From Terriglobia bacterium (GTDB lineage Bacteria > Acidobacteriota > Terriglobia > 20CM-2-55-15), in contig CBDCFM010000021.1 in NCBI GenBank assembly GCA_965216035.1, positions 4,236 through 68,235 of the forward strand: 64,000 nucleotides of DNA, written 5' to 3'. Of the stretch, positions 10,760-32,631 are shown piece after piece. Position numbers and translations under genes: made by a program. Within the stretch, counting starts at the first letter, position 1. The number at the start of each line of letters is the position of its first letter. The notes under the pieces are model-generated. The model ran no database searches, was not told the DNA's origin, and worked only from the letters and a program-made list of their open reading frames with translations.

Positions 10760-12190
10760 TTACTCAACCGCTTCGTGGGAAATGAACTCTCTCGGGTCCG
10801 CAACTTTTCCGGCCACTGCGGATGCCGCTGCTGTCAGGGGAGAACCCAGCATGGTCCGGCCGCCCTGCCCCTGCCGGCCCTCAAAGTTTCGATTGCTTGT
10901 GCTGACCGCCCGTTGCCCGGGCTCGAGCTGGTCCCCGTTCATTGCCAGGCACATGCTGCATCCGGGCTGACGCCACTCGGCGCCGGACTCTTCAAAAATG
11001 CGATCCAGCCCTTCGCTCTCGGCCTCGGCCCGGACTTGCTCTGATCCCGGAACGATCAAGGCGCGGACACCTTCGCTCACCTTTCGACCTTTGAGAACCC
11101 TTGCAGCTTCCCGCATGTCGGAAATCCGCGAGTTGGTGCAGCTCCCGATGAAGACCACATCCACCTTCTGCCCGATCAAGGGTTCTCCGGCTAGCAGGCC
11201 CATATACTTAAGTGACGCTTCGAGTTGATCGCGTTCTACGGGGTTGTCTATGTCTGCGGGGCTCGGTATCCCTTCCCGGATGGGCGCGCACATTGAGGGG
11301 TTGGTACCGAAGCTGATCATCGGCTCCAGCGCCGACGTATTGATCGTTACGGTCTTGTCGTACAACGCTTCCGGATCGCTGGGTAACTGGTGCCATTTTT
11401 CCACGGCGCGATCCCAATCTTTCCCTTTGGGTGCGAATTCCCGTCCGGACATGTACGCGTAGGTCGTGTCGTCCGGTGCGACGAGTCCGGCGCGCGCGCC
11501 GCCTTCAATGGACATGTTGCAAATCGTCATCCGGGCTTCCATCCCGAGACTCCGAATCGCCGAACCCGTGTATTCGATGACGTGGCCCGTGCCGCCTCCG
11601 ATGCCGATCTTTGAGATCAACCCGAGAATCATGTCCTTGCTGGAAACGCCGGGTTGGAGCCGGCCCTGGAAATCCACCTTGAAGTTGCCAACCTTGCGTT
11701 CAAGCAGGCACTGAGACGCAAGCACATGCTCGACCTCGGTGGTCCCGATGCCGAAGGCCAGGGTCCCAAAGGCGCCATGCGTCGAGGTATGGCTGTCGCC
11801 GCAAACCAAGGTCAGGCCGGGCTGGGTCAGTCCGAGCTCCGGACCAATGACGTGAACGATGCCGCGCCGGCTGTCCCCGATTGTGTATAGGCGCACACCA
11901 AAGTCCGCACAACTCTGCTCGAGGCTCCGGAGCTGTTCAACGGCCAGCTCGCCCGCGTCAGCGATGTTCCGGCTGATGGTCGGAGTGACATGGTCTGCCG
12001 TCGCCAGGGTTCGATCCGGCCGGCGGACCTTGAGTCCCCGATTGCGGATCCCTGTAAATGCTTGAGGAGAAGTGACTTCATGGATCAGATGAAGATCGAT
12101 GTAAAGGATCGAGGGCTTCTCGTCGCCGTCCACCACAACGTGGCTATCCCAGATTTTGTCGTAGAGCGTCCTGGCTTTTGGGTCCGTCAT
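10760..12190 (-). CDS. leuC: 3-isopropylmalate dehydratase large subunit
   Basis: Aconitase-family LeuC sequence throughout, 476 aa. Confidence 0.9.
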
Positions 12191-13000: not shown

Positions 13001-14539
<1,539 letters not shown>

Positions 14540-15805: not shown

Positions 15806-17503
15806 ATGCCCGACAACGCGGAAACAAAAGAGCTGAACCGTTTCAGCAGGCATCTGACCCAGGCCTATGACCGTCCCGCGGCCCGGGCAATGTTGCTCGG
15901 GGCCGGCTTGTCGGAATCGGACCTCAATCGGGCGCAGGTCGGGATTACCAGCGCGGGATATGAAGGCAATCCCTGCAACATGCACTTGAACCGCCTGGCT
16001 ATGGCGGCCAAGGAAGGTGTGCGGTCATCCGACCTGGTGGGGCTGGTTTCCAATACCATCGGTGTCAGCGATGGCATCTCGATGGGGACCTTCGGAATGC
16101 GGTATTCGCTGCCGTCGAGAGATCTGATTGCGGACTCCATAGAGACGATCGCCTCAGCCCAGCACTACGACGGCCTGATCACTATCATGGGCTGCGACAA
16201 GAACATGCCGGGTGCGATGATCGCCATGGAACGTCTCAACCGTCCCGCGCTCATGATCTATGGCGGGACCATTGCTCCCGGACATCTCAATGGAGACAAG
16301 CTCGATGTGATTTCCTCCTTCGAGGCGTTGGGTGAGCACCTTGCCGGGAAGATCACGTTGGAACGGTTTCAGGACGTCGTCCGTCAGAGTTGTCCCGGTG
16401 CAGGTGCCTGCGGGGGGATGTTTACGGCCAATACGATGGCCAGCGCGATCGAGGTTATGGGAATGAGCCTGCCCTACAGTTCTTCCAATCCCGCCGAAAG
16501 TAACGAGAAGGTTGCCGAGTGCCGCAGCGCGGGGCCAGCGCTTCGAGGGCTTTTAGAAAAAGACCTGCGGCCGCGGGATATCTTGACGCGCAAGTCTTTT
16601 GAAAATGCCATTACGCTTGTGACCGTTCTGGGTGGATCAACCAACGCCGTCCTCCATCTTCTGGCCATGGCTAGAACGGTCCAGGTCGATCTCACGGTCG
16701 ATGATTTTCAGGAAATCAGCAGCCGGGTACCTGTCCTGGCCGATTTCAGGCCGAGCGGCCCGTACTTGATGGAAGACCTCCATGCCATCGGTGGAACGCC
16801 GGCCGTCGTCAGAATGCTCTTGGAACAGGGACTGCTGCATGGCGACTGCATGACCGTTACCGGTGCCACGCTCGCCGAAAACGTGGCCGACCTACCCCCC
16901 CTCAAGAGCGGACAGGAGGTCGTCCGTAGCCCGGAGGATCCGATCAGCGCGTGCGGCCATTTGAGAATCCTCTACGGGAACCTTGCTGAGAGAGGTGCCG
17001 TAGCGAAAATTACCGGTAAGGAAGGCGAGACTTTCGAAGGCCCGGCCCGAGTTTTCGACAGCGAGGCGGATGCGAATGCGGGTATTGCCGAGGGAGGCGT
17101 AAAAGCCGGCGACGTTGTTGTGATTCGGTACGAGGGCCCCAGGGGCGGACCCGGGATGCCGGAGATGCTGACTCCGAGTTCGATGATCATGGGAGCCGGC
17201 CTGGGTAAGGACGTCGCGTTGATTACGGACGGCCGTTTTTCGGGTGGAACACATGGTTTTGTCGTGGGCCATATCACTCCGGAAGCTCAGGATGGCGGTC
17301 TGATTGCGTTCCTCAAGGATGGCGATCGCATACGCATCGATGCCGTCAACAACACGATCGATCTGGACCTGGCACCCGACGCAATAGCAGCGCGCCGGGC
17401 CGGGTGGTCGGCGCCGCCGTTACGCGTGACCTCGGGCGCTCTCTACAAATATGCCCGGGCGGTGTCATCCGCGTCCGAAGGCTGTACTACAGACGGAGCG
17501 TAA
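15806..17503 (+). CDS. ilvD: dihydroxy-acid dehydratase
   Basis: IlvD/EDD-family sequence, 565 aa. Confidence 0.9.
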
Positions 17504-17504
17504 G

Positions 17505-19286
17505 ATGTCGCGAAGCAAGACGACGGTAAGCGGGGAAGAAGAAACACTGAGCGCTCTAGAGCCAGAAGCCATAGCGCCAGAAGGTTTCCTCCAACCACCA
17601 CAGACAGTGTCGGGATCCGAAGCACTTGTGCTTTCGTTGTTGCAGGGAGGCGTCCGCACGGTCTTCGGTTACCCGGGTGGAGCGATCATGCCCGTGTACG
17701 ACGCCCTGTTCGAGTACGACCATCAGATTCGACATATTCTCGTCCGTCACGAACAGGGATCGATCCATGCTGCCCAAGGCTACGCGCGCGCCTCGGGAAG
17801 GCCCGGCGTCTGTATTGCCACGTCCGGCCCTGGAGCGACAAACCTGATCACGGGCATTGCAGACGCAAAAATGGACAGCACACCCGTGGTGTGTATTACC
17901 GGACAAGTGCCCTCGAGGATGCTGGGTTCGGACGCGTTTCAGGAGACGGACATCATCTCGGTGAGCGCGCCCCTGACAAAGTGGAATTACCAGATCACGC
18001 AGCCCGAAGAGATCCCCGAAGTGATTGCCAAAGCCCTCTATATCGCACGGTCGGGACGTCCTGGACCCGTGTTGATCGATGTCACAAAGGACGCACAGAT
18101 CGGGAATCTCGACTACCGGCCGGTGATCATACCCGAGATCCGGGGTTACCGGCCGCGGCCCGCATTGGAACCTGGGAATGTTGAGGCAGCAGCCCGGTTG
18201 ATCGACCAGTCGCGAAAACCATTCGTTCTGGTGGGACAGGGCGTCCTGCTGTCGGAGGCACAGGCCGAACTGAAGGCCTTTGTCGAGAAGGCCCAGCTCC
18301 CGTTCGCGTGCACACTGCTGGGACTGTCGGCCCTACCGCGCCGTCACCGGCTGCACACCGGCATGCTGGGAATGCATGGAAACTACGGACCGAACATCAA
18401 GACCAACCAGTGCGATCTCTTGATAGCGGTCGGGATGCGGTTCGATGACCGGGTGACCGGTGATCTTTCCAAGTATGCGCGGCAAGCTAGGGTCATTCAT
18501 ATAGATATCGATCGGTCCGAAATCGACAAGAACGTCAAGACCGATGTTGCTATCGTCGCCGACGCCAAGGAGGCTCTTCGGGCTCTCGTTGACGCGGTCG
18601 GGCCAGCAAATCGTGAGGAGTGGCTGGCTGAGTTTCGAGAGTGCGACAGGATCGAAATCGATCGGGTCATTCAAAAAGATATTCATCCCGACTCTCCCGG
18701 TCTCCGGATGGCGGAAGTCATTCATCAGTTGTCCGAGCGCAGTGATGGAAAAGCCATCATCGTCTCCGACGTTGGACAACACCAGATGGCTGCGGCCCGC
18801 TATTACAAGTTCGAAGAAGGCAGCGGCACTATAACCTCCGGGGGCCTCGGGACGATGGGTTTTGCCCTGCCGGCGGCGATTGGCGCGGCCATCGCACGGC
18901 AGGACCGACCCGTTATCGCCATTATTGGTGACGGTGGGTTCCAGATGACACTTCAGGAGTTGGGCACGATTTCCCAGGCGAAGATTCCGGTCAAGATGAT
19001 GATCCTGAACAACGAGTACCTGGGAATGGTGCGCCAGTGGCAACAGTTGTTCTTTTCACGCCGTTATTCGGCGACCGAATTGATGAATCCGGACTTCGTG
19101 GCCATTGCGGCGGCTTACGGTATGGAAGGAATTCGGGTGACTGAAAGAGGAAAGCTCGGTGAGTCGATTGAAGCGATGTTGGGAGCGGAGTCGTCGTTCC
19201 TTCTGGAAGTGCTAGTGGAACGGGAGGACAACGTGTTCCCGATGGTCCCTTCCGGTTCGGCCTGTTCCGAGATTCGCTTGGAATAG
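17505..19286 (+). CDS. ilvB: acetolactate synthase large subunit (TPP/FAD)
   Basis: The ATG at 17505 follows the ilvD TAA by 1 nt, and the TPP-enzyme motifs are present. Confidence 0.9.
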   Translation: MSRSKTTVSGEEETLSALEPEAIAPEGFLQPPQTVSGSEALVLSLLQGGVRTVFGYPGGAIMPVYDALFEYDHQIRHILVRHEQGSIHAAQGYARASGRPGVCIATSGPGATNLITGIADAKMDSTPVVCITGQVPSRMLGSDAFQETDIISVSAPLTKWNYQITQPEEIPEVIAKALYIARSGRPGPVLIDVTKDAQIGNLDYRPVIIPEIRGYRPRPALEPGNVEAAARLIDQSRKPFVLVGQGVLLSEAQAELKAFVEKAQLPFACTLLGLSALPRRHRLHTGMLGMHGNYGPNIKTNQCDLLIAVGMRFDDRVTGDLSKYARQARVIHIDIDRSEIDKNVKTDVAIVADAKEALRALVDAVGPANREEWLAEFRECDRIEIDRVIQKDIHPDSPGLRMAEVIHQLSERSDGKAIIVSDVGQHQMAAARYYKFEEGSGTITSGGLGTMGFALPAAIGAAIARQDRPVIAIIGDGGFQMTLQELGTISQAKIPVKMMILNNEYLGMVRQWQQLFFSRRYSATELMNPDFVAIAAAYGMEGIRVTERGKLGESIEAMLGAESSFLLEVLVEREDNVFPMVPSGSACSEIRLE

Positions 19287-20949: not shown

Positions 20950-22220
20950 CACGGTCCGACTCTCCTGAACTGACCTGGCGTCCGGGGACGGACGCCATTG
21001 GGAAGGCTGCGAACCGTGTGAAGAACGTCGTCGTCCGCACTCCCATGGAGCGCGATGCCAGCCTTTCCGAAGATTACGAAGCCAACGTCCTGCTCAAGCG
21101 AGAAGATCTGCAGGTTGTCCGTTCCTACAAAATTAGGGGCGCCTACAACAAGATCCGCAGTTGTTCGGATGAGGAACTCTCAAGGGGCGTTTCATGTGCA
21201 AGCGCCGGTAACCATGCCCAGGGCGTCGCTTACGCTGCCAAGAGCCTCGGCATTCACGCGACAATCTATATGCCGCTGACCACACCAAGTCAGAAGATTG
21301 AACGCGTGCGTGCGCTTGGCGGATCGAGGGTTGATATCGAGATGGTTGGCGATGTCTTTGACGATGCTGAACGGGAGGCTGTCCGTCGGACGACGTCCGA
21401 CGGTTCCATCTACGTGCACCCGTTTGAGGATCCCATCGTGATCGAAGGTCAGGCAACCGTCGGCATGGAGATGCTCGAAGACGCGGGTCACACCATCGAC
21501 ATCATGTTTGTGCCCGTAGGAGGGGGTGGCCTGGCCGCCGGCGTGGGCAGTTGGGTCAAAGCGAAATCTCCAGAAACCGAGATCATCGGTGTGCAGCCCG
21601 AAGGTGCACCCTCGATGGTCGAAGCATTTCGTGCTGGCCATCCGGTCCAGCTCGAAACGATCGACGTATTCACTGATGGAGCGGCCGTTCAGCGGGTGGG
21701 GGAGTTGACCTACCAGATCTGCAGGGAGGTGCTCGACGAGGTTGTGACCGTTCCTGAAGGACGGTTGTGCGCCACTATTCTCAGCCTTTACAACGATCAT
21801 GGAATCATTGTCGAACCTGCCGGCGCCTTAGCGATTTCCGCGCTCGAAGACTGTCGGGATCGCATCAGGGAAAAGACCGTTGCCTGTCTGATCAGCGGCG
21901 GCAATAACGACTTTCGGAGAATCGAAGAGATCCGAGAGCGAGCGCTGATCTACGAAGGCTTGAAGCACTACTTCATCGTGCGATTCCCGCAGCGTGCCGG
22001 TGCGCTCCGTGAGTTCGTTGTTGATGTCCTGGGACCGGGCGATGACATCACACACTTTTCATACTCCAAAAAGACCGACCGGGACAGGGGCCCCGCGGTG
22101 ATCGGAGTGGAATTGAGAAATAAGGAAGATCTGGAACCTCTGATCCGTCGAATGAAAGGTTCAGGTTTCTTTGGAGAGTACCTGAACGACAGTCCCGACC
22201 TACTCCACTACCTCGTCTAG
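20946..22220 (+). CDS. ilvA: threonine ammonia-lyase (biosynthetic, with C-terminal regulatory domain)
   Basis: PLP-fold threonine dehydratase. It is ATGA-coupled to ilvC. Confidence 0.85.
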   Translation: MTRSDSPELTWRPGTDAIGKAANRVKNVVVRTPMERDASLSEDYEANVLLKREDLQVVRSYKIRGAYNKIRSCSDEELSRGVSCASAGNHAQGVAYAAKSLGIHATIYMPLTTPSQKIERVRALGGSRVDIEMVGDVFDDAEREAVRRTTSDGSIYVHPFEDPIVIEGQATVGMEMLEDAGHTIDIMFVPVGGGGLAAGVGSWVKAKSPETEIIGVQPEGAPSMVEAFRAGHPVQLETIDVFTDGAAVQRVGELTYQICREVLDEVVTVPEGRLCATILSLYNDHGIIVEPAGALAISALEDCRDRIREKTVACLISGGNNDFRRIEEIRERALIYEGLKHYFIVRFPQRAGALREFVVDVLGPGDDITHFSYSKKTDRDRGPAVIGVELRNKEDLEPLIRRMKGSGFFGEYLNDSPDLLHYLV

Positions 22221-22227
22221 AAATGGG

Positions 22228-22289
22228 GTCAGAGCCCTGTTTCGTCTCACGTTTTTTCAACAATTCAATAGGGGAAACAGGGCTCTGAC
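22228..22289. repeat. perfect 16-bp inverted repeat with a ~30-nt loop immediately after ilvA (terminator or REP-like element)
   Basis: GTCAGAGCCCTGTTTC ... GAAACAGGGCTCTGAC, followed by ccattttcg. Confidence 0.35.
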
Positions 22290-22487
22290 GCCATTTTCGA
22301 GGGCCGTTAGCCGGGCATTGAAGGGACTCGGATCAAGATCCTGGAAAAAACCTCCCTTCCACCCGGCTGACAGACAGCAGGGGTGGACGACCTGTGGGAC
22401 AAGACTGTGGAACAGGCTTTTCGAGATATCATTAACGAGGACGGACACGCAACTGGAACACAGTATCGAAAAGGCAGGCCACACCCG

Positions 22488-24359: not shown

Positions 24360-24512
24360 TCAGAATGGAGCCGTCACAGCACGAGCCAACCCGCCGCCCA
24401 AACTCTTGAAGAATCTGCCGACCTTCTGAGTCCACATGTCGCGGATGTCCTCGTTGGAAAGCATGCTTCGGTAGTTGTGCGAGTTCCATGAGGGGAACCA
24501 GACTGTATTGAG
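24360..24512 (-). pseudogene. displaced original C-terminal coding segment (about 50 codons) of the ABC1/UbiB-like kinase gene, cut off by the IS21-family insertion
   Basis: It is in frame with 27471..29162 once 24513..27465 plus one TTGAG copy is removed. The duplicated Leu codon sits at both junctions. Confidence 0.45.
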
Positions 24513-24700
24513 TGCGTATTCCGGACCATCCTGAACACTGATTCCGATCCATCGTGAACACCGATTCCGGGATCGTGAACGCGGATTCCGGGATCCTGAA
24601 CAGTGATTCCGGTGATCCTGAACACCGATTCCGGCCATCGTGATCACTCGTCGGTAGCGAAGTTTGGAGCTTTTAGGTTCTCCTGAAGCACAGGAGGGCC

Positions 24701-26260
24701 TTGATGGCAACGAAACGACTACCGATGAGACAGATACGCGAGATTCTACGACTCAAACACGACCAACAGCTCAGCCACCGGGCGATCGCCAGCGCATGTC
24801 GCGTGGGCTTGGGCACCGTTGCGGACTACTTGGGACGGGCCAAGCAGGCCGGACTGGAATGGCCGCTGCCCGAAGACCTGGACGAGGCAGCGCTTGAAGC
24901 GCGGCTGTTTCCCCGCGCGGGACCGGGCTCCCGGGAACGGGTGGCTCCGGATGTAGAACGGATCCACCAGGAGTTGAAGCGTGTTGGAGTCACCCTGCAC
25001 CTGCTGTGGGAAGAGTACCGAGAAGCGAATCCAAAGGGATATGCCTACAGCCAGTTCTGTGAGATCTACCGGCGTTGGGCCCAGAAATTGAAGCCCTCGA
25101 TGCGACAGGTGCACCGCGCCGGAGAGAAGACCTTCATCGACTTTTCCGGCAAACGGCCACAGCTGACGGATCCACGGACGGGCAAAGCTATTCCAGTCGA
25201 GTTGTTCGTCGCTGTTCTGGGCGCCAGCGGTTACACCTACGCGGAAGCGACACCGAGCCAGAAACTCCCCGATTGGGTCGGCGTGCATATCCGCATGGTG
25301 GAGTTCTTCGGCGGATCGAGCCGGATCTGGGTTCCCGACCAACTCAAGAGTGCCATTACCCAGCCCTGCCGCTATGAAGCAGGCGTCAACCGTACCTACC
25401 AGGATGAGGCCGAACACTACGGCGCCGTTGTCATACCGGCCCGACCGCGGAAAGCTCGGGACAAAGCGAAAGTTGAATCGACCGTCCTGGTCGCACAGCG
25501 GTGGATCCTGGCCAGGATCCGGAATCGCACGTTCTTCAGTCTGGCCGACTTGAACGGAGCCATTCGAGAGTTGCTGGTGGAACTGAACCAGCGGCCGATG
25601 CAGAAGCTTCGAGTATCCCGCCTGGAACTCTACGAGCGGCTGGATCGACCGGCATTACAGCCCCTCCCGACCAACCGGTATGAACAGGCCGAGTGGAAGG
25701 ACTGTCGTGTCAGCATCGATTACCACATTACCGTGGACCGCCATCCTTACAGCGTGCCCTGCCAGTTGATCCATGAGAGGGTGGAAGCACGTTACACGGC
25801 GTCCATTGTCGAGGTCTACTACAAAGGCCGGCGCGTGACGTCCCATCGCCGTCGCTACGATCACAAGCCGTCGACTCTGTCCGAACATATGCCCAGTGCC
25901 CATCGGGCCCATGCGGAATGGACACCGTCCCGGCTGATTAGTTGGGCGGAGAAAACTGGCCCCAAGACCGGCCGCCTGGTCGAGGAGATCATGAAACGGT
26001 GGCCGCATCCGGAACAGGGGTACCGGGCCTGCCTGGGATTGATGAGTCTAGGTCGCCGCTCCGGCGCCGAGCGGCTCGAAGCCGCCAGTGCGCGGGCGCT
26101 GCACTTGCAGTCCTATAGCTACCGCACCGTCAAGAACATCCTGTCGTCGGCCCAGGACCGGTTGCCTTTCGGGGACACCGAAACCCCACCGACGCCCCAT
26201 CACGACAACATTCGCGGCGCCGCCTACTATGCGGACCCCGAGGAGACGCACTCATGCTAA
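24701..26260 (+). CDS. istA: IS21-family transposase IstA
   Basis: N-terminal HTH MRQIREILRLKHDQQLSHRAIASA and the IstA integrase core, 519 aa. Confidence 0.85.
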   Translation: MMATKRLPMRQIREILRLKHDQQLSHRAIASACRVGLGTVADYLGRAKQAGLEWPLPEDLDEAALEARLFPRAGPGSRERVAPDVERIHQELKRVGVTLHLLWEEYREANPKGYAYSQFCEIYRRWAQKLKPSMRQVHRAGEKTFIDFSGKRPQLTDPRTGKAIPVELFVAVLGASGYTYAEATPSQKLPDWVGVHIRMVEFFGGSSRIWVPDQLKSAITQPCRYEAGVNRTYQDEAEHYGAVVIPARPRKARDKAKVESTVLVAQRWILARIRNRTFFSLADLNGAIRELLVELNQRPMQKLRVSRLELYERLDRPALQPLPTNRYEQAEWKDCRVSIDYHITVDRHPYSVPCQLIHERVEARYTASIVEVYYKGRRVTSHRRRYDHKPSTLSEHMPSAHRAHAEWTPSRLISWAEKTGPKTGRLVEEIMKRWPHPEQGYRACLGLMSLGRRSGAERLEAASARALHLQSYSYRTVKNILSSAQDRLPFGDTETPPTPHHDNIRGAAYYADPEETHSC

Positions 26261-27012
26261 TGGAACAAACCCTGGAGAAGATGAACCAGATGAAGCTATC
26301 GGCCATGGTCGAGGCCCTGGAGCAGCAACGCCGCTCGAATCAGTACACGGATCTCGGCTTCGAGGAACGTCTGGGCCTACTGGTGGATGAGGAGTGGACG
26401 GCCCGGGAGCACCGCAAGCTCACCCGACGCCTGCGCGCGGCGAAGCTGCGCGACGCGACGGCATCGCTGGAAAACGTCGACTTCAAACATCGTCGCCGTC
26501 TGGACCGTTCCCAAGTCCTCGCCCTGGGCTCCTGCGGGTGGATCCAAGACCGGCACAATCTTCTCATCACCGGTCCGACCGGCATCGGAAAGAGTTTTCT
26601 GGCTTCGGCTTTCGTCGAACGCGCCTGCCGGCGGGGTTTTAACGCCACCTACGTCCGCATGCCTCGGCTCTTGCACCAACTGGCGGTCGGCCGTGGCGAC
26701 GGCTCCTACACCCGAGTCCTGGCCCGTCTGGCCAAAACCGATCTGCTGGCCATCGACGACTGGCTCCTGGCCCCGCTGCGCGACGCTGAACGCCGGGACC
26801 TGATCGAAGTCGTCGAGGAACGGAGCGAACGTTCCGCCATCTTGATCGCCAGCCAGCTCCCGGTCCCCGACTGGCACGGCGTCATTGGCGACCCGAACCA
26901 GGCCGACGCCATCTGCGATCGCCTCCTCCACAATGCGCACCGTATCGAACTGAAAGGGGCATTGATGCGGCAAACCAAGACCCAACCCAAGACGTTGAAG
27001 GAGTCCCGATGA
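26254..27012 (+). CDS. istB: IS21-family helper ATPase IstB
   Basis: Walker A LLITGPTGIGKSFLA. It overlaps the end of istA. Confidence 0.85.
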   Translation: MLMEQTLEKMNQMKLSAMVEALEQQRRSNQYTDLGFEERLGLLVDEEWTAREHRKLTRRLRAAKLRDATASLENVDFKHRRRLDRSQVLALGSCGWIQDRHNLLITGPTGIGKSFLASAFVERACRRGFNATYVRMPRLLHQLAVGRGDGSYTRVLARLAKTDLLAIDDWLLAPLRDAERRDLIEVVEERSERSAILIASQLPVPDWHGVIGDPNQADAICDRLLHNAHRIELKGALMRQTKTQPKTLKESR

Positions 27013-27401
27013 TCGGCGCACCGATGCATCCACACGCCGCCGCCAGGGGGTACTCCAGGCCGGCCCCGGACCCAATCGTCGCTCCTGCGCAATCCTCGCG
27101 CGAAGGAAGTGCGGGAATCCGGGTCCGGGCGCGGAACGCGCGCCTCACGCAGGGCACGGGGCCTGTGGAAACTGCCGCAGCCGTGCAAATGGGAATGGTG
27201 GCCTTCGGCCGACTTTCTCTTGATCATTTCCACCGCTGCTTGCAAAAGCCTCCGCAAAAAACGCTCCCGGCTTTCGCACAGTTACACACAGGCCGGCGGC
27301 GATTTATCACAATAATTTTGGAAAGGACTAAAACAGAGAAAACCTGGACTCTGAAAGGAATAAACTGAGACGCTAACCCGTCGCTTCGCTCCGGCGAGTG
27401 T

Positions 27402-29162
27402 TCACGATGGCCGGAATCGGTGTTCATGATTCCGGAACTGGTGTTCACGATCAGCGGAATACCCATTGAGCACGTGCTTGGGGAATTCCCTCCAGACCAA
27501 AGCCCTCGCCCGATCCAACATGTATTCATCCTGATCGAAATCGGGATCCAGTTCCAGCAGGATGCCCGCGATGGTGATCTGTGACTTAATAAAGAGCGCA
27601 ATGTTGAAGCGGGTTTGAAATCCGGCTGTGGCCAGGTCAACGATCAGCCTCTGAAGGGTCGGGAATACCTCGGACTTCTGCCCCACCGCTCGGTCCACGA
27701 TTTCACCTATCTTTTCGTGTTCTGCAGCAGACGCCGGTGGCCATTCCTCAATCAGCGCCCCCACATTATTCACGATACGCTTGGTGTTTCCGAGATGGAC
27801 TCCGAGGACCAGTTGAACGAGTTGTGCTCGCTGCGCCCGAGGGAAACTGCCGTAGAGTCCCCAATCCAAAAGGGCAATTTGGTACGGATTCGAGGCGTCT
27901 TCAGAAACATGGAAGACGTTGCCGGCGTGGGGATCACCGTGGAAGATGGCCTCTTCTGCTGAGGAAAATATTACATCGACCGTGAGAACGTCACTTAGAC
28001 GCTGGGCCATTTCCTTACGGTCACCCGGCTGGCCGGTGTGCGCATCCGTGATCTTATTTCCAGGGACAAACTCCATCGCTGTCACGTTTGGTGTTGAAAG
28101 CGGGTACAGATGAGGTACCCGGACTGCGGGGTTGCCGGCGTAGTAGGTTTCGGCCAAAGCCAAGTTCCGCTGCTCATCCACAATGCGGATTTCGCTCGAG
28201 AGTGCTGTTTTGACATCCCGAAAGGTGTCGGAGAGCGGAATGTCGCCAAGACCGTAGGCGCTGCTGTTTTCCTCGAAGAACAGGGAGAGTTGATCGAGTA
28301 TTTCAAGTTCCCGCGGCAGCGATTCCAGGACGTAGGGCTTGACGACCTTGAAAACGATATCTTCTTCGCTTTCTCTCTCTGCCTGGATGAGGGTGGCGCG
28401 GATCACGGCTCCGACGCTGGCTTCGGCCAAGATATCTTCAGCGAATCGGACTTGAAATGTGTCGATAGCTTCTTGACCGATGTCCTCCTCGATCAATCCG
28501 ACTATTTCTTCAGGATCTGAAGTCGCAATGCCGTTTTCCAGGGTCTGCAAAGCCATGCGGAGGTCCGGCGACAGGTCTGGATTACGAGCCAGAATCTGAC
28601 CAATCTTTTGCAGCGAGGGTGTCCTGTCAGTGAACTTGAGCAGCCGGTCTGCCCTGCCCGTACCTGCGGGCAGATAGGTCAAGTTTAAAATTCGCTCGAA
28701 AATCCGTTCGTCGCCCAACCCATCCAGGAAAAACAAGAGTGAATCGTGGACAACGGGAATCCAATCTGATGCGCTACCCGGGACAAGGTCGAGAATACTG
28801 GAATGGTGGATCAGCAATTCCAGAATCTCCCTACGGAACGGTTCCAGGTCGAGTGATCGAAGCAAGGTCAAGGCTTCAGAACGATGTACTTGCGGCGTAG
28901 TCCCGGCTGAGCGAGGACTGAGGAACTGCTGAACTATCGCCTGAGATTCGACATCCAATTCCGGCAGCAATGTATTCAGCAGACGGATGCCTGCCAGGTC
29001 GGCGTCGAAACGTGTGTAATGGGCGGGTGGCGTCGGCAGCTCCAGGTCGGCACCATCCGCCATGGGAGCGAGGCACAGGAGGGGGAGGATTACAGCATTT
29101 GAAAGAAATCGTCGCGTCATTAGTCGGTTTTTACAAAAACAACGGAAAGTCTTCCTCTGCAT
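27402..29162 (-). CDS. ABC1/UbiB-family atypical protein kinase; the last ~21 codons and the stop are derived from the IS21 end
   Basis: Kinase-like motifs KVVKP, HGDPHAGNV and LDWG. The N-terminus looks like a signal peptide (MTRRFLSNAVILPLLCLAPMA). Confidence 0.7.
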   Translation of the reverse strand: MQRKTFRCFCKNRLMTRRFLSNAVILPLLCLAPMADGADLELPTPPAHYTRFDADLAGIRLLNTLLPELDVESQAIVQQFLSPRSAGTTPQVHRSEALTLLRSLDLEPFRREILELLIHHSSILDLVPGSASDWIPVVHDSLLFFLDGLGDERIFERILNLTYLPAGTGRADRLLKFTDRTPSLQKIGQILARNPDLSPDLRMALQTLENGIATSDPEEIVGLIEEDIGQEAIDTFQVRFAEDILAEASVGAVIRATLIQAERESEEDIVFKVVKPYVLESLPRELEILDQLSLFFEENSSAYGLGDIPLSDTFRDVKTALSSEIRIVDEQRNLALAETYYAGNPAVRVPHLYPLSTPNVTAMEFVPGNKITDAHTGQPGDRKEMAQRLSDVLTVDVIFSSAEEAIFHGDPHAGNVFHVSEDASNPYQIALLDWGLYGSFPRAQRAQLVQLVLGVHLGNTKRIVNNVGALIEEWPPASAAEHEKIGEIVDRAVGQKSEVFPTLQRLIVDLATAGFQTRFNIALFIKSQITIAGILLELDPDFDQDEYMLDRARALVWREFPKHVLNGYSADREHQFRNHEHRFRPS

Positions 29163-29670
29163 TCGACCTGAAGAACCAGAGGCTCGCCCGGTTGCTGTGT
29201 GATCCGATTCGTTCTTAGACCCACCTTAGATCCACAAGAAACCGCGGCTTCTGCCCCTCCAGAGTAACGCTAGGGAGGATCTCGTCGGCGAGTTGGGCGA
29301 TTGATGTATTGCGTGCACTCGCAGAAAACTTTGCTGAAAGTCCCCGCCAGCAGCGTTCTCCAGTGACCCCGAATCCTGGGTGGGTTCCGGCGGGAAGTCC
29401 AGCCACCTCTCGTGTTCGACCCACACGATCCACTCATCAGTGATAGTCATCATTGTGCCTCGTATAGGCACTGTCAACCAAACTTTAAGCACAGTTTCTC
29501 TACGAGAAAACGATGTCGGGCGCTTCCTGTCAGCACATTGAGAAAGTCGCCCGGATCCCCGCCGCGGACGATGAAGCTCAGGTCAAGGTGGAGAACGAGC
29601 GGGCCCAGCGCAACCGACCTGTGCGGCTGCTATTCCCACGGACAGCCCGAAACCTGTAGTATCCGGTCTG

Positions 29671-30951
29671 ATGACAGCGATCATACAACCGACTGCGGAG
29701 GACCTTATCGAGGATCTGCGCGAAGCGCGTGAGAGAGAGCTTACGCTCTTCACGGATCTCTCCGAGGCGCAATTGTTGGGTCCGAAGGATCACTTCCTCG
29801 AACCTCCAATCTGGGAAGCAGGTCACGTCGGCTGGTTTCAGGACTACTGGATCCTCCGGAACCTCGGGAAGGCGACACCAATTCTCGAAGACGGGGACGA
29901 TATTTACGATGCGTTCAACGTGTCTTACAAGAGTCGCTGGGATCACGACTACATGTCACGTGACCAGACGCTGGATTATCTACACACCGTCCTCGATCGC
30001 TCGATCGCCCGCCTGGAGGGACGCGACACCAATGAGACGGAGAGATACTTCTATTGGTTGACGACACAACACGAATACATGCACTCGGAAAACCTTTGTA
30101 TGGTGCGGCAGACCCTGGGATACCCCAGACCGAAGTTTACAGAGATAGCCGTTTTGCCGGACCCGAGCTTCGAACCCGGGGATGTGGAGATTCCAGGCGG
30201 AACGTATTCCCATGGGGCCAGGAGCGATGATTGCTTCGTCTTCGACAACGAAAAATGGGCACACGAAATCGAGATCACTCCATTCCGTATTGCCAACGCG
30301 CCCGTGACGAACGCCGAGTTTCTTCGCTTCGTCGATGCTGGAGGATACGGTGTGAGGCGGTTCTGGGGGAAGCACGGTTGGGAGTGGCGCCGCCGGGAAG
30401 GCGCAACCCGTCCGTTGTTCTGGCGCAAGTCGAACCGCGGTTGGGTACAGAAACGATTCGACGGTAGCTTTCCGCTGAGGCCGAACGATCCGGTCGTGCA
30501 CATCAACTGGTATGAGGCACGGGCGTATTGTGCGTGGTCCGGTCGCAGGCTTCCGACCGAGTCTGAATGGGAAGTGACTGCCGCAGGCTATGAGAAGCGT
30601 CGGTTCCCGTGGGGCGGGGAGCCCCCGAGGGTGGAGCACGCCAATCTGGATTGGAACCATCTGGATGTCGTGGATGTCAGCGCCTATCCGGAAGGGGACA
30701 GTGCTTTTGGCTGCCGACAGATGATTGGCAACATCTGGGAATGGACCGACAGCGTGCTGGAACCGTACCCGGGGTTTTCGCCGGACCCGTATAAGGAGTA
30801 TTCCCAGCCTTGTTTTGGGCAGAAGCCTGTCCTTCGCGGAGGCGGGTTCGCGTCGCGTTCCAAGATGATCCGAAACACCTGGCGGAACTTCTTCATGCGG
30901 CATCGCCGCAACATTGTCGCCGGATTTCGAACCTGCGCCCTGCAGGGCTGA
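29671..30951 (+). CDS. EgtB-like sulfoxide synthase (DinB_2 N-domain plus FGE-sulfatase C-domain non-heme iron enzyme)
   Basis: HVGWFQDYW and HEYMHSEN iron-ligand motifs, and a C-terminal FGE-sulfatase domain (RGGGFASR...), 426 aa. Confidence 0.7.
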   Translation: MTAIIQPTAEDLIEDLREARERELTLFTDLSEAQLLGPKDHFLEPPIWEAGHVGWFQDYWILRNLGKATPILEDGDDIYDAFNVSYKSRWDHDYMSRDQTLDYLHTVLDRSIARLEGRDTNETERYFYWLTTQHEYMHSENLCMVRQTLGYPRPKFTEIAVLPDPSFEPGDVEIPGGTYSHGARSDDCFVFDNEKWAHEIEITPFRIANAPVTNAEFLRFVDAGGYGVRRFWGKHGWEWRRREGATRPLFWRKSNRGWVQKRFDGSFPLRPNDPVVHINWYEARAYCAWSGRRLPTESEWEVTAAGYEKRRFPWGGEPPRVEHANLDWNHLDVVDVSAYPEGDSAFGCRQMIGNIWEWTDSVLEPYPGFSPDPYKEYSQPCFGQKPVLRGGGFASRSKMIRNTWRNFFMRHRRNIVAGFRTCALQG

Positions 30952-31011
30952 TGCGATTGACTCCCATCCCCGTTCGTACGGGAAGCCGTCCCTCCGATGC
31001 CGCCGTTTAAG

Positions 31012-31351
31012 TTAGCAGCCCGTGGCAGAAGTCCCAAGGACCGCGCGCAGGGGTCTTCGGGTTGCAGGCGCGAAGTGAGGAGTGGGCACCGAGGTTTGAA
31101 ATCGAGGCCGCGGGCGCCGTCTTTTCATCGTGACCGGCCTTATCAATGCCGGACAAAGCCTGCGGGGCGCCTGCGGCCTCCGTTTGATACGTCGGTGGCC
31201 CCCCTGCGCCCGAAGGGTTACGGCGAAACGGGGCCGTCTTCGTTGTCGCCGACTCCTCCCAATGAATGCGCATTGTCTCGACGTCGTCTCCTAGAATCCG
31301 GCCCCGTTTGGCCGTAACGCGGTCCTTGGGACTTCTGCCACGGGCTACTAA
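31012..31351. mobile_element. MITE-like non-autonomous element (~340 bp) with 34-bp terminal inverted repeats (1 mismatch)
   Basis: TTAGCAGCCCGTGGCAGAAGTCCCAAGGACCGCG at 31012-31045 and its reverse complement, with TAGTAG for TAGCAG, at 31318-31351. The interior has nested complementarity and no coding capacity. Confidence 0.45.
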
Positions 31352-32631
31352 GCTTCGAGCGGTTGACCGCTCCTGTCGGGAAGCGTGAACACCAAAAGCG
31401 CGGCCAGAAGAAAGAATCCCGACGTCACGCCGAGCGCCAGCCCGATACCGATACCCGGCAACGCCCCCAGATAACCGATAACGAAAGGAGCGAGACCTCC
31501 GACCAGGCGTCCCAGGCTGAAGCTCGTTCCCTGGCCGGTCGCCCGCACCGATGTCGGAAACAGTTCGGCGATGAAACTGCCGAACATTGAAAGGTAACCG
31601 TGGCCGACGTAGCCGAGGAAGGGTCCGAGCAGCAAGAGGATCAGCGGGCTGCGCGCCATCTGTCCATATATCGGCACCAAAATGGCCGCCGCGAGCATGA
31701 AGAGGACAAAGGTGCGCCGGCGTCCGATTTCGTCCGCAATGAACCCGAAGGTGAGGTAGCCAAGGTATGCGCCGATCTGAACGGGAACAATCCACCCGAG
31801 TGAACCGACCACGCCCATACCCGCGCCCCCGTCCTCAATGGGTCGGGAGAGAAAAGCCGGTAGCCAGAAGAAGACGCCCCAGTAGGCGAACTGGACTGTG
31901 GAGCTGAGCAGGATGATCAAAAGCGTCCGGCCAATCAGGTCTCGACCGAAAATCACAGCGAACTGATTTCGGCCTTGAGTCCGCGGAGCGGCACGGTGTT
32001 CAGTCCAGAGATCCGGCTCGGGAACACTGCGCCGCACCCACAGCACCAGCAACGCCGGAGCCGCTCCCAGGGCAAACAACAGGCGCCAAGAGTCGTCGCC
32101 CAGCCAGGCCGGGCCCAGTATGACGGCACCGAGAACCGCGGCCAGGAGGTAGCCCAATGCCCAGCCTGTTTGCATGATGCTGATTGCCTTGTTGCGATGC
32201 GCGGGCGGCCACGTCTCGCTGATCAGCACGGCGCCTGTGGCCCATTCGCCACCCATACCGATTCCGAGCAAGGCGCGCCACAGCAACAGTTGGAGTAACG
32301 ATTGCGAAGTAGCGGTCCCGAGCGAGGCCAGCGAGAAGATCAGGATCGTGAACATCAGTGCGCGTGTCCGGCCGACGCGGTCTGCCACGAAACCGAAAGT
32401 GATGCCTCCGACAGCGGACGTTGCGAGCGCGACCGTCCCCAGGATGCCGGCAGTGGCGTCGCTGAACCCGAAGTAGACTGTGAGTTCGCTGACCGCGATT
32501 GCGTAGAGCATGAAATCCATCGCGTCCAACATCCAACCCAGCTTTGCTGCGAGCAGGATCTTCCATTGGTATCGCGAGATGGTCGAGTACCAGCGCATGG
32601 GTACCGAGATATCTGCTTCTACTCGGCTCAC
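31348..32631 (-). CDS. MFS transporter
   Basis: 12-TM MFS pattern (GxLaDrxGrR-like motif DRVGRTRAL). The stop codon lies within the MITE terminus. Confidence 0.8.
   Translation of the reverse strand: MSRVEADISVPMRWYSTISRYQWKILLAAKLGWMLDAMDFMLYAIAVSELTVYFGFSDATAGILGTVALATSAVGGITFGFVADRVGRTRALMFTILIFSLASLGTATSQSLLQLLLWRALLGIGMGGEWATGAVLISETWPPAHRNKAISIMQTGWALGYLLAAVLGAVILGPAWLGDDSWRLLFALGAAPALLVLWVRRSVPEPDLWTEHRAAPRTQGRNQFAVIFGRDLIGRTLLIILLSSTVQFAYWGVFFWLPAFLSRPIEDGGAGMGVVGSLGWIVPVQIGAYLGYLTFGFIADEIGRRRTFVLFMLAAAILVPIYGQMARSPLILLLLGPFLGYVGHGYLSMFGSFIAELFPTSVRATGQGTSFSLGRLVGGLAPFVIGYLGALPGIGIGLALGVTSGFFLLAALLVFTLPDRSGQPLEA

Follow-up and report, generated by a model that had tools for sequence, protein, structure and literature searches.

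The 340 bp at positions 31012–31351 of the window, as the whole 64-kb stretch of DNA analysed here is called, are probably one copy of a non-autonomous transposon with terminal inverted repeats (MITE), which belongs to a large family in soil bacteria and would be mobilized in trans by a DDE transposase making 4-bp duplications of YTAR sites. MITEs are small, non-coding elements that carry terminal inverted repeats (TIRs), are flanked by a short target duplication and are dispersed in mostly intergenic positions (PMC10969869). The same traits are found here: the copies are small and non-coding, possess TIRs and a target duplication, and are dispersed in multiple numbers within one genome. A MITE-like mobile element had been proposed in a first-pass annotation of this DNA, and the proposal is supported: the sequence is not single-copy, but has more than 100 relatives and copies at unrelated loci. 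The kind of element is a known one, and the family is apparently undescribed and seems widespread in uncultivated soil bacteria.

In the window the element sits between two convergent genes, an EgtB-like gene on the plus strand and an MFS transporter gene on the minus strand. The features of this region are the following, with the evidence for each in brackets.

29671–30951, plus strand: gene with DinB_2 and FGE-sulfatase domains (EgtB-like), the convergent neighbour (Pfam; synteny with L004–L007).
31012–31015, plus strand: left flanking tetranucleotide TTAG, at the position of the target duplication (family alignment of ends).
31016–31045, plus strand: left terminal inverted repeat, 5' strand of the outer stem, CAGCCCGTGGCAGAAGTCCCAAGGACCGCG (repeat search, covariation).
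31046–31212, plus strand: left arm, a hairpin (fold, alignment with the L007 copy, covariance model on relatives).
31217–31318, plus strand: right arm, in which an inner stem (31217–31241 / 31294–31318) with a conserved G-G mismatch closes the apex (repeat search, covariance model, inner-stem covariation).
31235–31297, plus strand: apex motif CGTCTTCG..GTCG..CAATGAATG.GCATTG..CTCCTAGAAT, common to all subfamilies (pattern match, alignments).
31318–31347, plus strand: right terminal inverted repeat, 3' strand of the outer stem (repeat search, family ends).
31348–31351, plus strand: right flanking tetranucleotide CTAA, which on the complementary strand reads TTAG and provides the TAG stop codon of the MFS gene.
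31348–32631, minus strand: MFS transporter gene, 427 aa, with an intact C-terminus (Pfam MFS_1 / Sugar_tr; orthologues of equal length and C-terminus).

A repeat search confirmed the terminal inverted repeats reported at first pass: the arms of 34 nt at 31012–31045 and 31318–31351 are 97% complementary, lie 272 nt apart and differ by one mismatch. This sole mismatch is the A at 31347, the final base of the right repeat, where the canonical base of the family is G. Within the 64-kb window the 34-mer of the terminus occurs at just these two places with up to three mismatches (expected from shuffles, 0), and the flanking TTAG at 31012–31015 pairs with 31348–31351, lengthening the outer stem. A stretch of 354 nt folds with −213.6 kcal/mol compared with −146 ± 6.7 kcal/mol in dinucleotide shuffles (z = −10.0), and the complementary strand of the region shows similar folding. 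The earlier description of the element as one long hairpin holds in part. The nested inverted repeat (31217–31241 / 31294–31318, 25 nt, 88%) and the strong fold stand, but the minimum-energy structure is Y-shaped, with an outer stem, a left arm at 31046–31212 and a right arm at 31217–31318, and relatives fold either as a Y or as a rod.

Copies of the family range from 168 to 393 bp and are built on a common plan, which comprises a flanking tetranucleotide, an outer stem of 32 bp, an inner stem of ∼19 bp and an apex of 62 nt, with one or two inner hairpins. The inner stem bears a G-G mismatch at a fixed position in all subfamilies. The conserved apex sequence is CGTCTTCG..GTCGC..CAATGAATGAGCATTG..CTCCTAGAAT (62 nt) and in all subtypes examined (A, B and W) 55 nt, including the flank, separate its end from that of the element. 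This apex of ∼62 nt is 75–95% identical across subfamilies with unrelated stems, a conservation that is partly ascertainment, as both large searches were seeded with the apex, and that is still common to three subtypes whose stems are unrelated. In the copy of locus L110 the apex tolerates an insertion of 22 nt. The three subtypes are the following.

Type B: one arm, 168 nt, beginning CTAG-TGGCGCGTAACACCC...
Type A: two arms, 278 nt, beginning CTAG-TGTTGCGTCTCATAAATAGC... or TGTCCCGTCTCC...
Window type (W): two arms, 277–364 nt, beginning CTAG-CAGCCCGTGGCAGAAG...

Termini are TG..CA in types A and B and CAG..CTG in the window type; the window-type left terminus CAGCCCGTGGCAGAAGTCCCAAGGACCGCG is also present in the copies of L007, L110, L111, L112, L114 and L115. 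In forms with two arms, the left one is an inverted and diverged copy of the right one, aligning to it at ∼70% in L016. Folding as a Y or as a long rod is therefore possible, and both appear as minimum-energy structures among these copies. With a covariance model of the right arm, the left arms of the L007 and L008 copies are matched on the opposite strand, at 25.9 and 25.7 bits, respectively. The left arm of the window copy, which is ∼63 nt longer than that of the L007 copy, is too diverged for such a match. The window subfamily is a head-to-head dimer with two arms. Applied to the window with filters off, the model recognizes 31214–31320 (100.9 bits, E = 5e-26), and no other significant match to it occurs within the 64 kb. 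A separate inverted repeat of 23 nt (96% complementary, 30-nt spacer) is located at 22221–22296, directly after an ORF that ends at 22220; its sequence is unrelated to the element and it scores only 11.5 bits with the model (E = 0.7).

The interior had been described as non-coding, and this is upheld: ORFs in the element are devoid of Pfam domains and are conserved only over the DNA motif. A protein-coding element was considered and rejected, as the three subtypes have in common just the translated DNA motif (..ATTKT.PFR..), beyond which they diverge completely. The element leaves one frame open along its length, and gene callers place ORF starts at the ATG of the apex; the window copy is crossed by long spurious ORFs at 31007–31795 (minus strand) and 30997–31317 (plus strand). 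An attC-like site was likewise rejected, because the order GTTACGG...CCGTAAC, read from the sequence, is the reverse of R''/R'.

The distribution of the family was surveyed from the window outwards. The window corresponds to a contig of an ENA metagenome (ERZ25068966:ctg558481). A second sample contains the same strain as the window, with an identical element, and contigs with a 91%-identical MFS orthologue have no element behind that gene. One of these related contigs, L007, harbours a 277-nt copy elsewhere, between a NAD_binding_1 gene and a p450 gene, whose shorter left arm lowers its identity with the window element to 72% (336 aligned positions). The orthologous intergenic region of L004 and L005 is colinear with that of L007, is free of the element and contains a single CTAG. 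The empty allele reads GATAACG-CTAG-ATCTCC; the filled allele of L007 reads GATAACA-CTCG, followed by the element CAGCCCGTGG...CCACGGGCTG and by CTAG-ATCTCC. The two represent a classical filled/empty pair at a CTAG.

This pair also bears on the suggestion that the palindrome arose in place, by chance or by local inverted duplication, for example as an over-grown terminator between convergent genes. The position between two such genes is in keeping with a local origin. So is a small hairpin, GGTGGCAGAAGAAGATCTGCCAGG, at 11288–11320 of L004, downstream of the MFS stop and thus at the same place, which contains the 10-mer GTGGCAGAAG of the window-type terminal repeat; this hairpin may be what is left of a collapsed element at that site, or the match may be coincidental. 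A local origin is nevertheless refuted, and has practically no chance of being correct, given more than 100 homologous copies at unrelated loci, the filled/empty pair and copies 85–93% identical in related genomes.

A wider search was made with an apex pattern, CGTCTTCGNNGTCG-N(30-55)-CTNCTAGAAT, derived from the copies in the window and in L007 and from two partial, weaker ones in L008. The pattern recovers all known copies and matches once in the window. When JGI metagenome contigs were scanned, it was found in 100 contigs, mostly from soil and rhizosphere; ∼95 of them are unambiguous homologues, in which the spacing is almost always 61–62 nt, and their flanks are mutually unrelated up to the CTAG on both sides. 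Many copies lie within a few bases of a contig end, the position expected of an assembly-breaking repeat, and the family interrupts short-read assemblies. In two sets of contigs (L020 and L042; L085, L095 and L028) one flank of the element is common and the other is different, which reflects either chimeric assembly across the repeat or genuine recombination of copies.

As gene callers often call ORFs inside such repeats, a protein collection was searched with translations of the element. This yielded 169 clusters of 'hypothetical proteins', almost all without a Pfam domain and most of the window's own subtype, in the reading frame of the spurious ORFs described above and many starting at the apex ATG; the family seeds spurious proteins in databases of this kind. 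For 15 of the ORF clusters listed, the longest carrier is a contig of 5.87 Mb (ERZ26167216:ctg495928), and for four it is a contig of 6.47 Mb. Three of the 15 clusters were looked up and all are located on the 5.87-Mb contig, which accommodates at least four copies, at ∼1.41, 2.74 and 4.14 Mb, the two at 4.14 Mb being in inverted orientation. These copies are 85–93% identical to the window element, and the genome is rich in mobile DNA. The copy in L112 resides on a 551-kb contig of the window's own sample, with similar coverage. A 20-mer of the terminus found only a chance 22-nt match, in a Nitrosopumilaceae MAG, among GTDB representative genomes, in which the host species is evidently missing; two patterns gave no match in viral contigs, and PLSDB plasmids gave none either.

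Some copies occur as inverted pairs 0.8–1.6 kb apart, at 1036–1400 / 3015–3319 in L115 and at 14032–14143 / 14886–15102 in L008. They enclose one or two genes (4HBT_2 and MeaB; a cytidylyltransferase) in a layout reminiscent of a composite transposon.

The nature of the target site emerges from the flanks, the 4 nt adjoining the CAG...CTG termini. Across 108 unique ends they are mostly CTAG (91) and otherwise YTAR-like: TTAG at five, CCAG at four, CTAA at two, CCGG at two and single others. As CTAG is palindromic, copies flanked by it cannot distinguish a duplication of two bases from one of four. Direct repeats of other tetranucleotides are present in L112/L113 (TTAG..TTAG), L036 (CTAA..CTAA) and L061 (CCGG..CCGG), and CTAA also stands at both ends of the window-type copies P0136 and P0149, as judged from translations. 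Direct repeats other than CTAG indicate a 4-bp target duplication of a YTAR site.

A duplication of TA only, as made by IS630, was considered for the same ends. The preferred target of IS630 is TA within CTAG (Tenzen & Ohtsubo 1991, as listed in PMC2170065), and TA alone is duplicated. Among the IS630/Tc1-mariner elements and their MITEs, IS630 thus has a CTAG preference in common with the element family. The IS630 model would fit the TTAG and CTAA of the window copy without any mutation. However, it predicts flanks of the form NTAG..CTAN', not the observed TTAG..TTAG and CTAA..CTAA, and it is ruled out by TTAG..TTAG and the three cases of CTAA..CTAA. In L036, P0136 and P0149, whose right flank has a terminal A, the left flank has one too, as expected of a duplication of 4 bp and not of 2 bp.

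The flanks of the window copy are atypical: TTAG on the left and CTAA on the right are inverted (complementary) and not direct repeats. A TAAG target duplication, suggested in the first-pass annotation, proved to be coincidental. The family flanks adjoin the termini, which in the window places them at 31012–31015 and 31348–31351; moreover, the proposed right-hand copy is one base off, since 31348–31351 is CTAA and TAAG is 31349–31352. The window flanks are the outcome either of two post-insertion substitutions, which make the stem longer and leave the MFS product unaltered, or of recombination between two copies with different flanks. A recombinant origin fits the local history of the interval between the MFS gene and the neighbouring ABC1 kinase gene, because 2.2 kb of the window (29106–31331) replaces 138 bp of L004.

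The position of the element on a stop codon can be related to the same target. CTAG contains TAG on both strands, and TTAG and CTAA contain it on one strand. Sufficient flanking sequence is available for 97 unique ends, and 27 of these directly adjoin the stop codon of an ORF with 100 codons or more; several copies do so on both sides. The orientation of the element with respect to that gene shows no bias, since 13 of 44 left and 14 of 53 right ends have such a stop next to them. Unoccupied CTAG sites in the same loci are likewise often such stops (90 of 371), and the overlap therefore follows from target choice and is not special to the window copy. The 4-bp duplication would regenerate the stop codon, so that the genes on either side would keep theirs; insertions exactly at a gene end would be harmless and would survive, which would account for the overlap with the MFS stop codon. 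A preference for YTAR/CTAG lets a transposon land exactly on stop codons without damage.

The last codons of the MFS gene had been placed within the right terminus of the element. This is correct for the stop codon TAG (31348–31350), which lies in the outermost 4 nt; just one base of the last Ala codon falls there besides. The further claim that the insertion rewrote the 3' end of the gene is contradicted by element-free orthologues: those of L004 and L007 also encode 427 aa and end in ..DRSGQPLEA followed by a stop, TAA or TAG at the DNA level. All orthologues in L004–L007 (91% identical) and in L008 (82%, ending in ..DRSGLPLEA) have 427 aa, and P0004 (90%) is of the same length. The MFS protein of the window is unchanged by the element. 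For the annotation of the window the consequences are small, as the element has left the MFS gene intact and sits on its stop codon as a neutral passenger.

A peculiar property of the family is the way in which its stems evolve. Among 33 distinct copies, 96.8% of the outer-stem cells are standard pairs, as opposed to 68% when partners are shuffled and 32–41% when the strands are slid by 1–3 columns. Thirty of the 32 pairs are altered on both sides, and the sequence differs completely between subtypes. The inner stem also covaries, and complementarity spans ∼50 bp per side, with many compensatory changes. Window-subtype copies on a single contig display half-changed pairs (G-T, A-C) alongside completed double changes; the arms are therefore kept complementary copy by copy. 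Pairing would be maintained by selection on the hairpin or by arm-to-arm correction. G-T and A-C mismatches are about equally frequent (22 versus 20), and there is therefore no sign of selection on one RNA strand.

These patterns sit uneasily with a plain MITE, as terminal repeats that differ completely between subfamilies around a conserved apex are unusual for such an element, and a transposase reading terminal sequence does not require compensatory pairing over the whole length. One alternative is a functional structured RNA or regulatory module, such as a 3'-UTR stabilizer, a bidirectional terminator, a small RNA or a protein-binding site, which has spread as a repeat and is retained by the host for the activity of its apex. 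The identity of the apex across subfamilies with unrelated stems speaks for such a module, as do the very stable folding and the location of copies directly behind genes, where they are probably co-transcribed; the MITEs Correia and ERIC act in this manner (PMC10969869, PMC2229807). However, Rfam returned no match to the element at E ≤ 1, either in the window or in loci with copies of types A, B and W. A search for promoter-like sites in the element gave none, and its two terminator-like matches are close to the 0.8 expected from shuffles. Copies are unbiased in orientation with respect to the gene whose stop they use, G-U is not in excess over A-C, the L110 apex accepts its insertion and the apex conservation is in part a product of the search patterns. 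Taken together, these observations make an RNA module unlikely as the primary explanation, and it would in any case be compatible with a MITE.

A second alternative is a structure-dependent hairpin element of the REPIN/RAYT or IS200/IS605-PATE type, moving as single-stranded DNA and recognized by the shape of its hairpin, including the G-G mismatch and the apex. REPs are described in PMC3733652 as sequences of 20–40 bp with GTAG or CGTC heads and without target duplication. REPINs and REPs with their RAYT resemble the element family in forming long hairpins of two inverted halves, in their many copies and in the compensatory evolution of their arms. A hairpin element would explain why pairing is preserved over the whole length while stem sequences are free to change, why the G-G mismatch occupies the same stem position in all subfamilies and why apex and element end are always 55 nt apart in types A, B and W; the parity of G-T and A-C mismatches points in the same direction, to DNA and not to one RNA strand. 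In contrast to REPs, the element family is flanked by CTAG, duplicates 4 bp of its target and possesses an apex that is conserved and non-palindromic. REPIN and PATE families make no target duplication, whereas copies of the element are bordered by TTAG..TTAG or CTAA..CTAA. Their ends are long perfect inverted repeats and not subterminal hairpins, neither a GTAG nor a CGTC head is present, and no RAYT, TnpA or Y1/HUH gene lies next to any copy in the neighbourhoods fetched. A hairpin element of this type is accordingly very unlikely.

A related proposition is that the apex, the G-G mismatch and the fixed apex-to-end distance are what the mobilizing machinery or a host factor recognizes, and that the stems need only pair. 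This is improbable as matters stand. If true, the family would represent either a transposon read as a hairpin that nonetheless duplicates 4 bp of its target, or a mobile vehicle for a functional module, be it an RNA or a protein-binding site. We know of no described bacterial MITE family that combines a conserved apex, a G-G mismatch, a fixed apex-to-end distance and a 4-bp duplication. A reading of the hairpin and a functional apex are each improbable, and neither is supported by the strand-symmetry and orientation tests. Free but paired stems around a conserved apex are the only feature that might lead to something new.

A MITE mobilized in trans requires an enzyme, and a parent IS was sought on the basis of the first-pass annotation. 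Neither the window nor any fetched locus contains one: an autonomous element with the same ends was absent from the window and from ∼110 loci (±10 kb around chosen genes), as were additional solitary termini. Three insertion sequences were examined as candidates and discarded. The IS21-family insertion of the window (24.5–27.5 kb) has its own 22-nt repeated ends, unrelated to the element; the ends of an IS5-like IS in L007 (1500–3270) are also unrelated, with an GCATTTCTCAAGA repeat; and an IS3 copy in L110 bears no similarity.

According to the preferred explanation, a DDE transposase encoded elsewhere in the genome, most plausibly of IS5 type, would bind both ends of the element, cut it out or copy it and insert it at a YTAR site by means of staggered cuts 4 bp apart. 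The attribution to IS5 is tentative, with less than even odds, and is the most plausible one because IS5 enzymes make 4-bp YTAR duplications. To our knowledge, the termini of the element (TG..CA, CAG..CTG) do not resemble IS5-family ends. The target duplications of IS5 are of 4 bp with the consensus YTAR (CTAG, CTAA, TTAG) (PMC5009759). The resemblance to IS5 lies in this 4-bp YTAR duplication and is one of behaviour, not of membership; the element differs in that it is without a transposase gene, and no such gene with matching ends was encountered in the fetched loci.

Among known MITEs, Correia/NEMIS of Neisseria, ERIC and YPAL of enterobacteria, Chunjie of Geobacter and Nezha of cyanobacteria are, like the element family, small, non-coding and dispersed, with TIRs, a short duplication and stable hairpins. 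Both they and the present family are mostly intergenic and located directly behind genes. The family differs from them in that no sequence similarity has been established, complementarity is nearly full-length and the centre, not the ends, is common to subfamilies. The start of type B, TAGTGG..TAAC..GGTAC, may resemble Correia. The duplication made by Correia is TA, in contrast to the 4-bp YTAR duplication of the element family.

The surroundings of the window copy have a history of rearrangement. The window MFS protein is ∼74% identical to Vicinamibacterales proteins, and the IlvC protein is ∼80% identical to its nearest named matches, from Gemmatimonadota. In L004–L006 the MFS orthologue is followed, after 138–144 bp, by an ABC1 kinase gene; in L007 a trypsin/PDZ gene occupies this place. 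The EgtB-like gene is missing at this position in the closest relatives (L004–L007). The corresponding 29106–31331 of the window contains, besides the element and the EgtB-like gene, 39 nt left over from the trypsin-gene region (29267–29305) and a shared promoter-like stretch, TTTGGTTGACAGTGC. The MFS–ABC1 interval is different in every relative examined, and the family marks rearrangement-prone spots of which this interval is an example.

Other mobile DNA was noted near copies of the element. In L110, a group II intron reverse transcriptase (RVT_1 and GIIM, 16771–17934) and IS6-like and IS3-like transposase genes all lie within 10 kb of the copy. The IS21-family insertion of the window extends over 24504–27465, with IstA at 24701–26260 and IstB at 26254–27012, and is absent at the orthologous place in L004 and L007. 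Its left end consists of five tandem 22-nt repeats (24527–24635), to which a matching inverted copy corresponds near 27391–27420.
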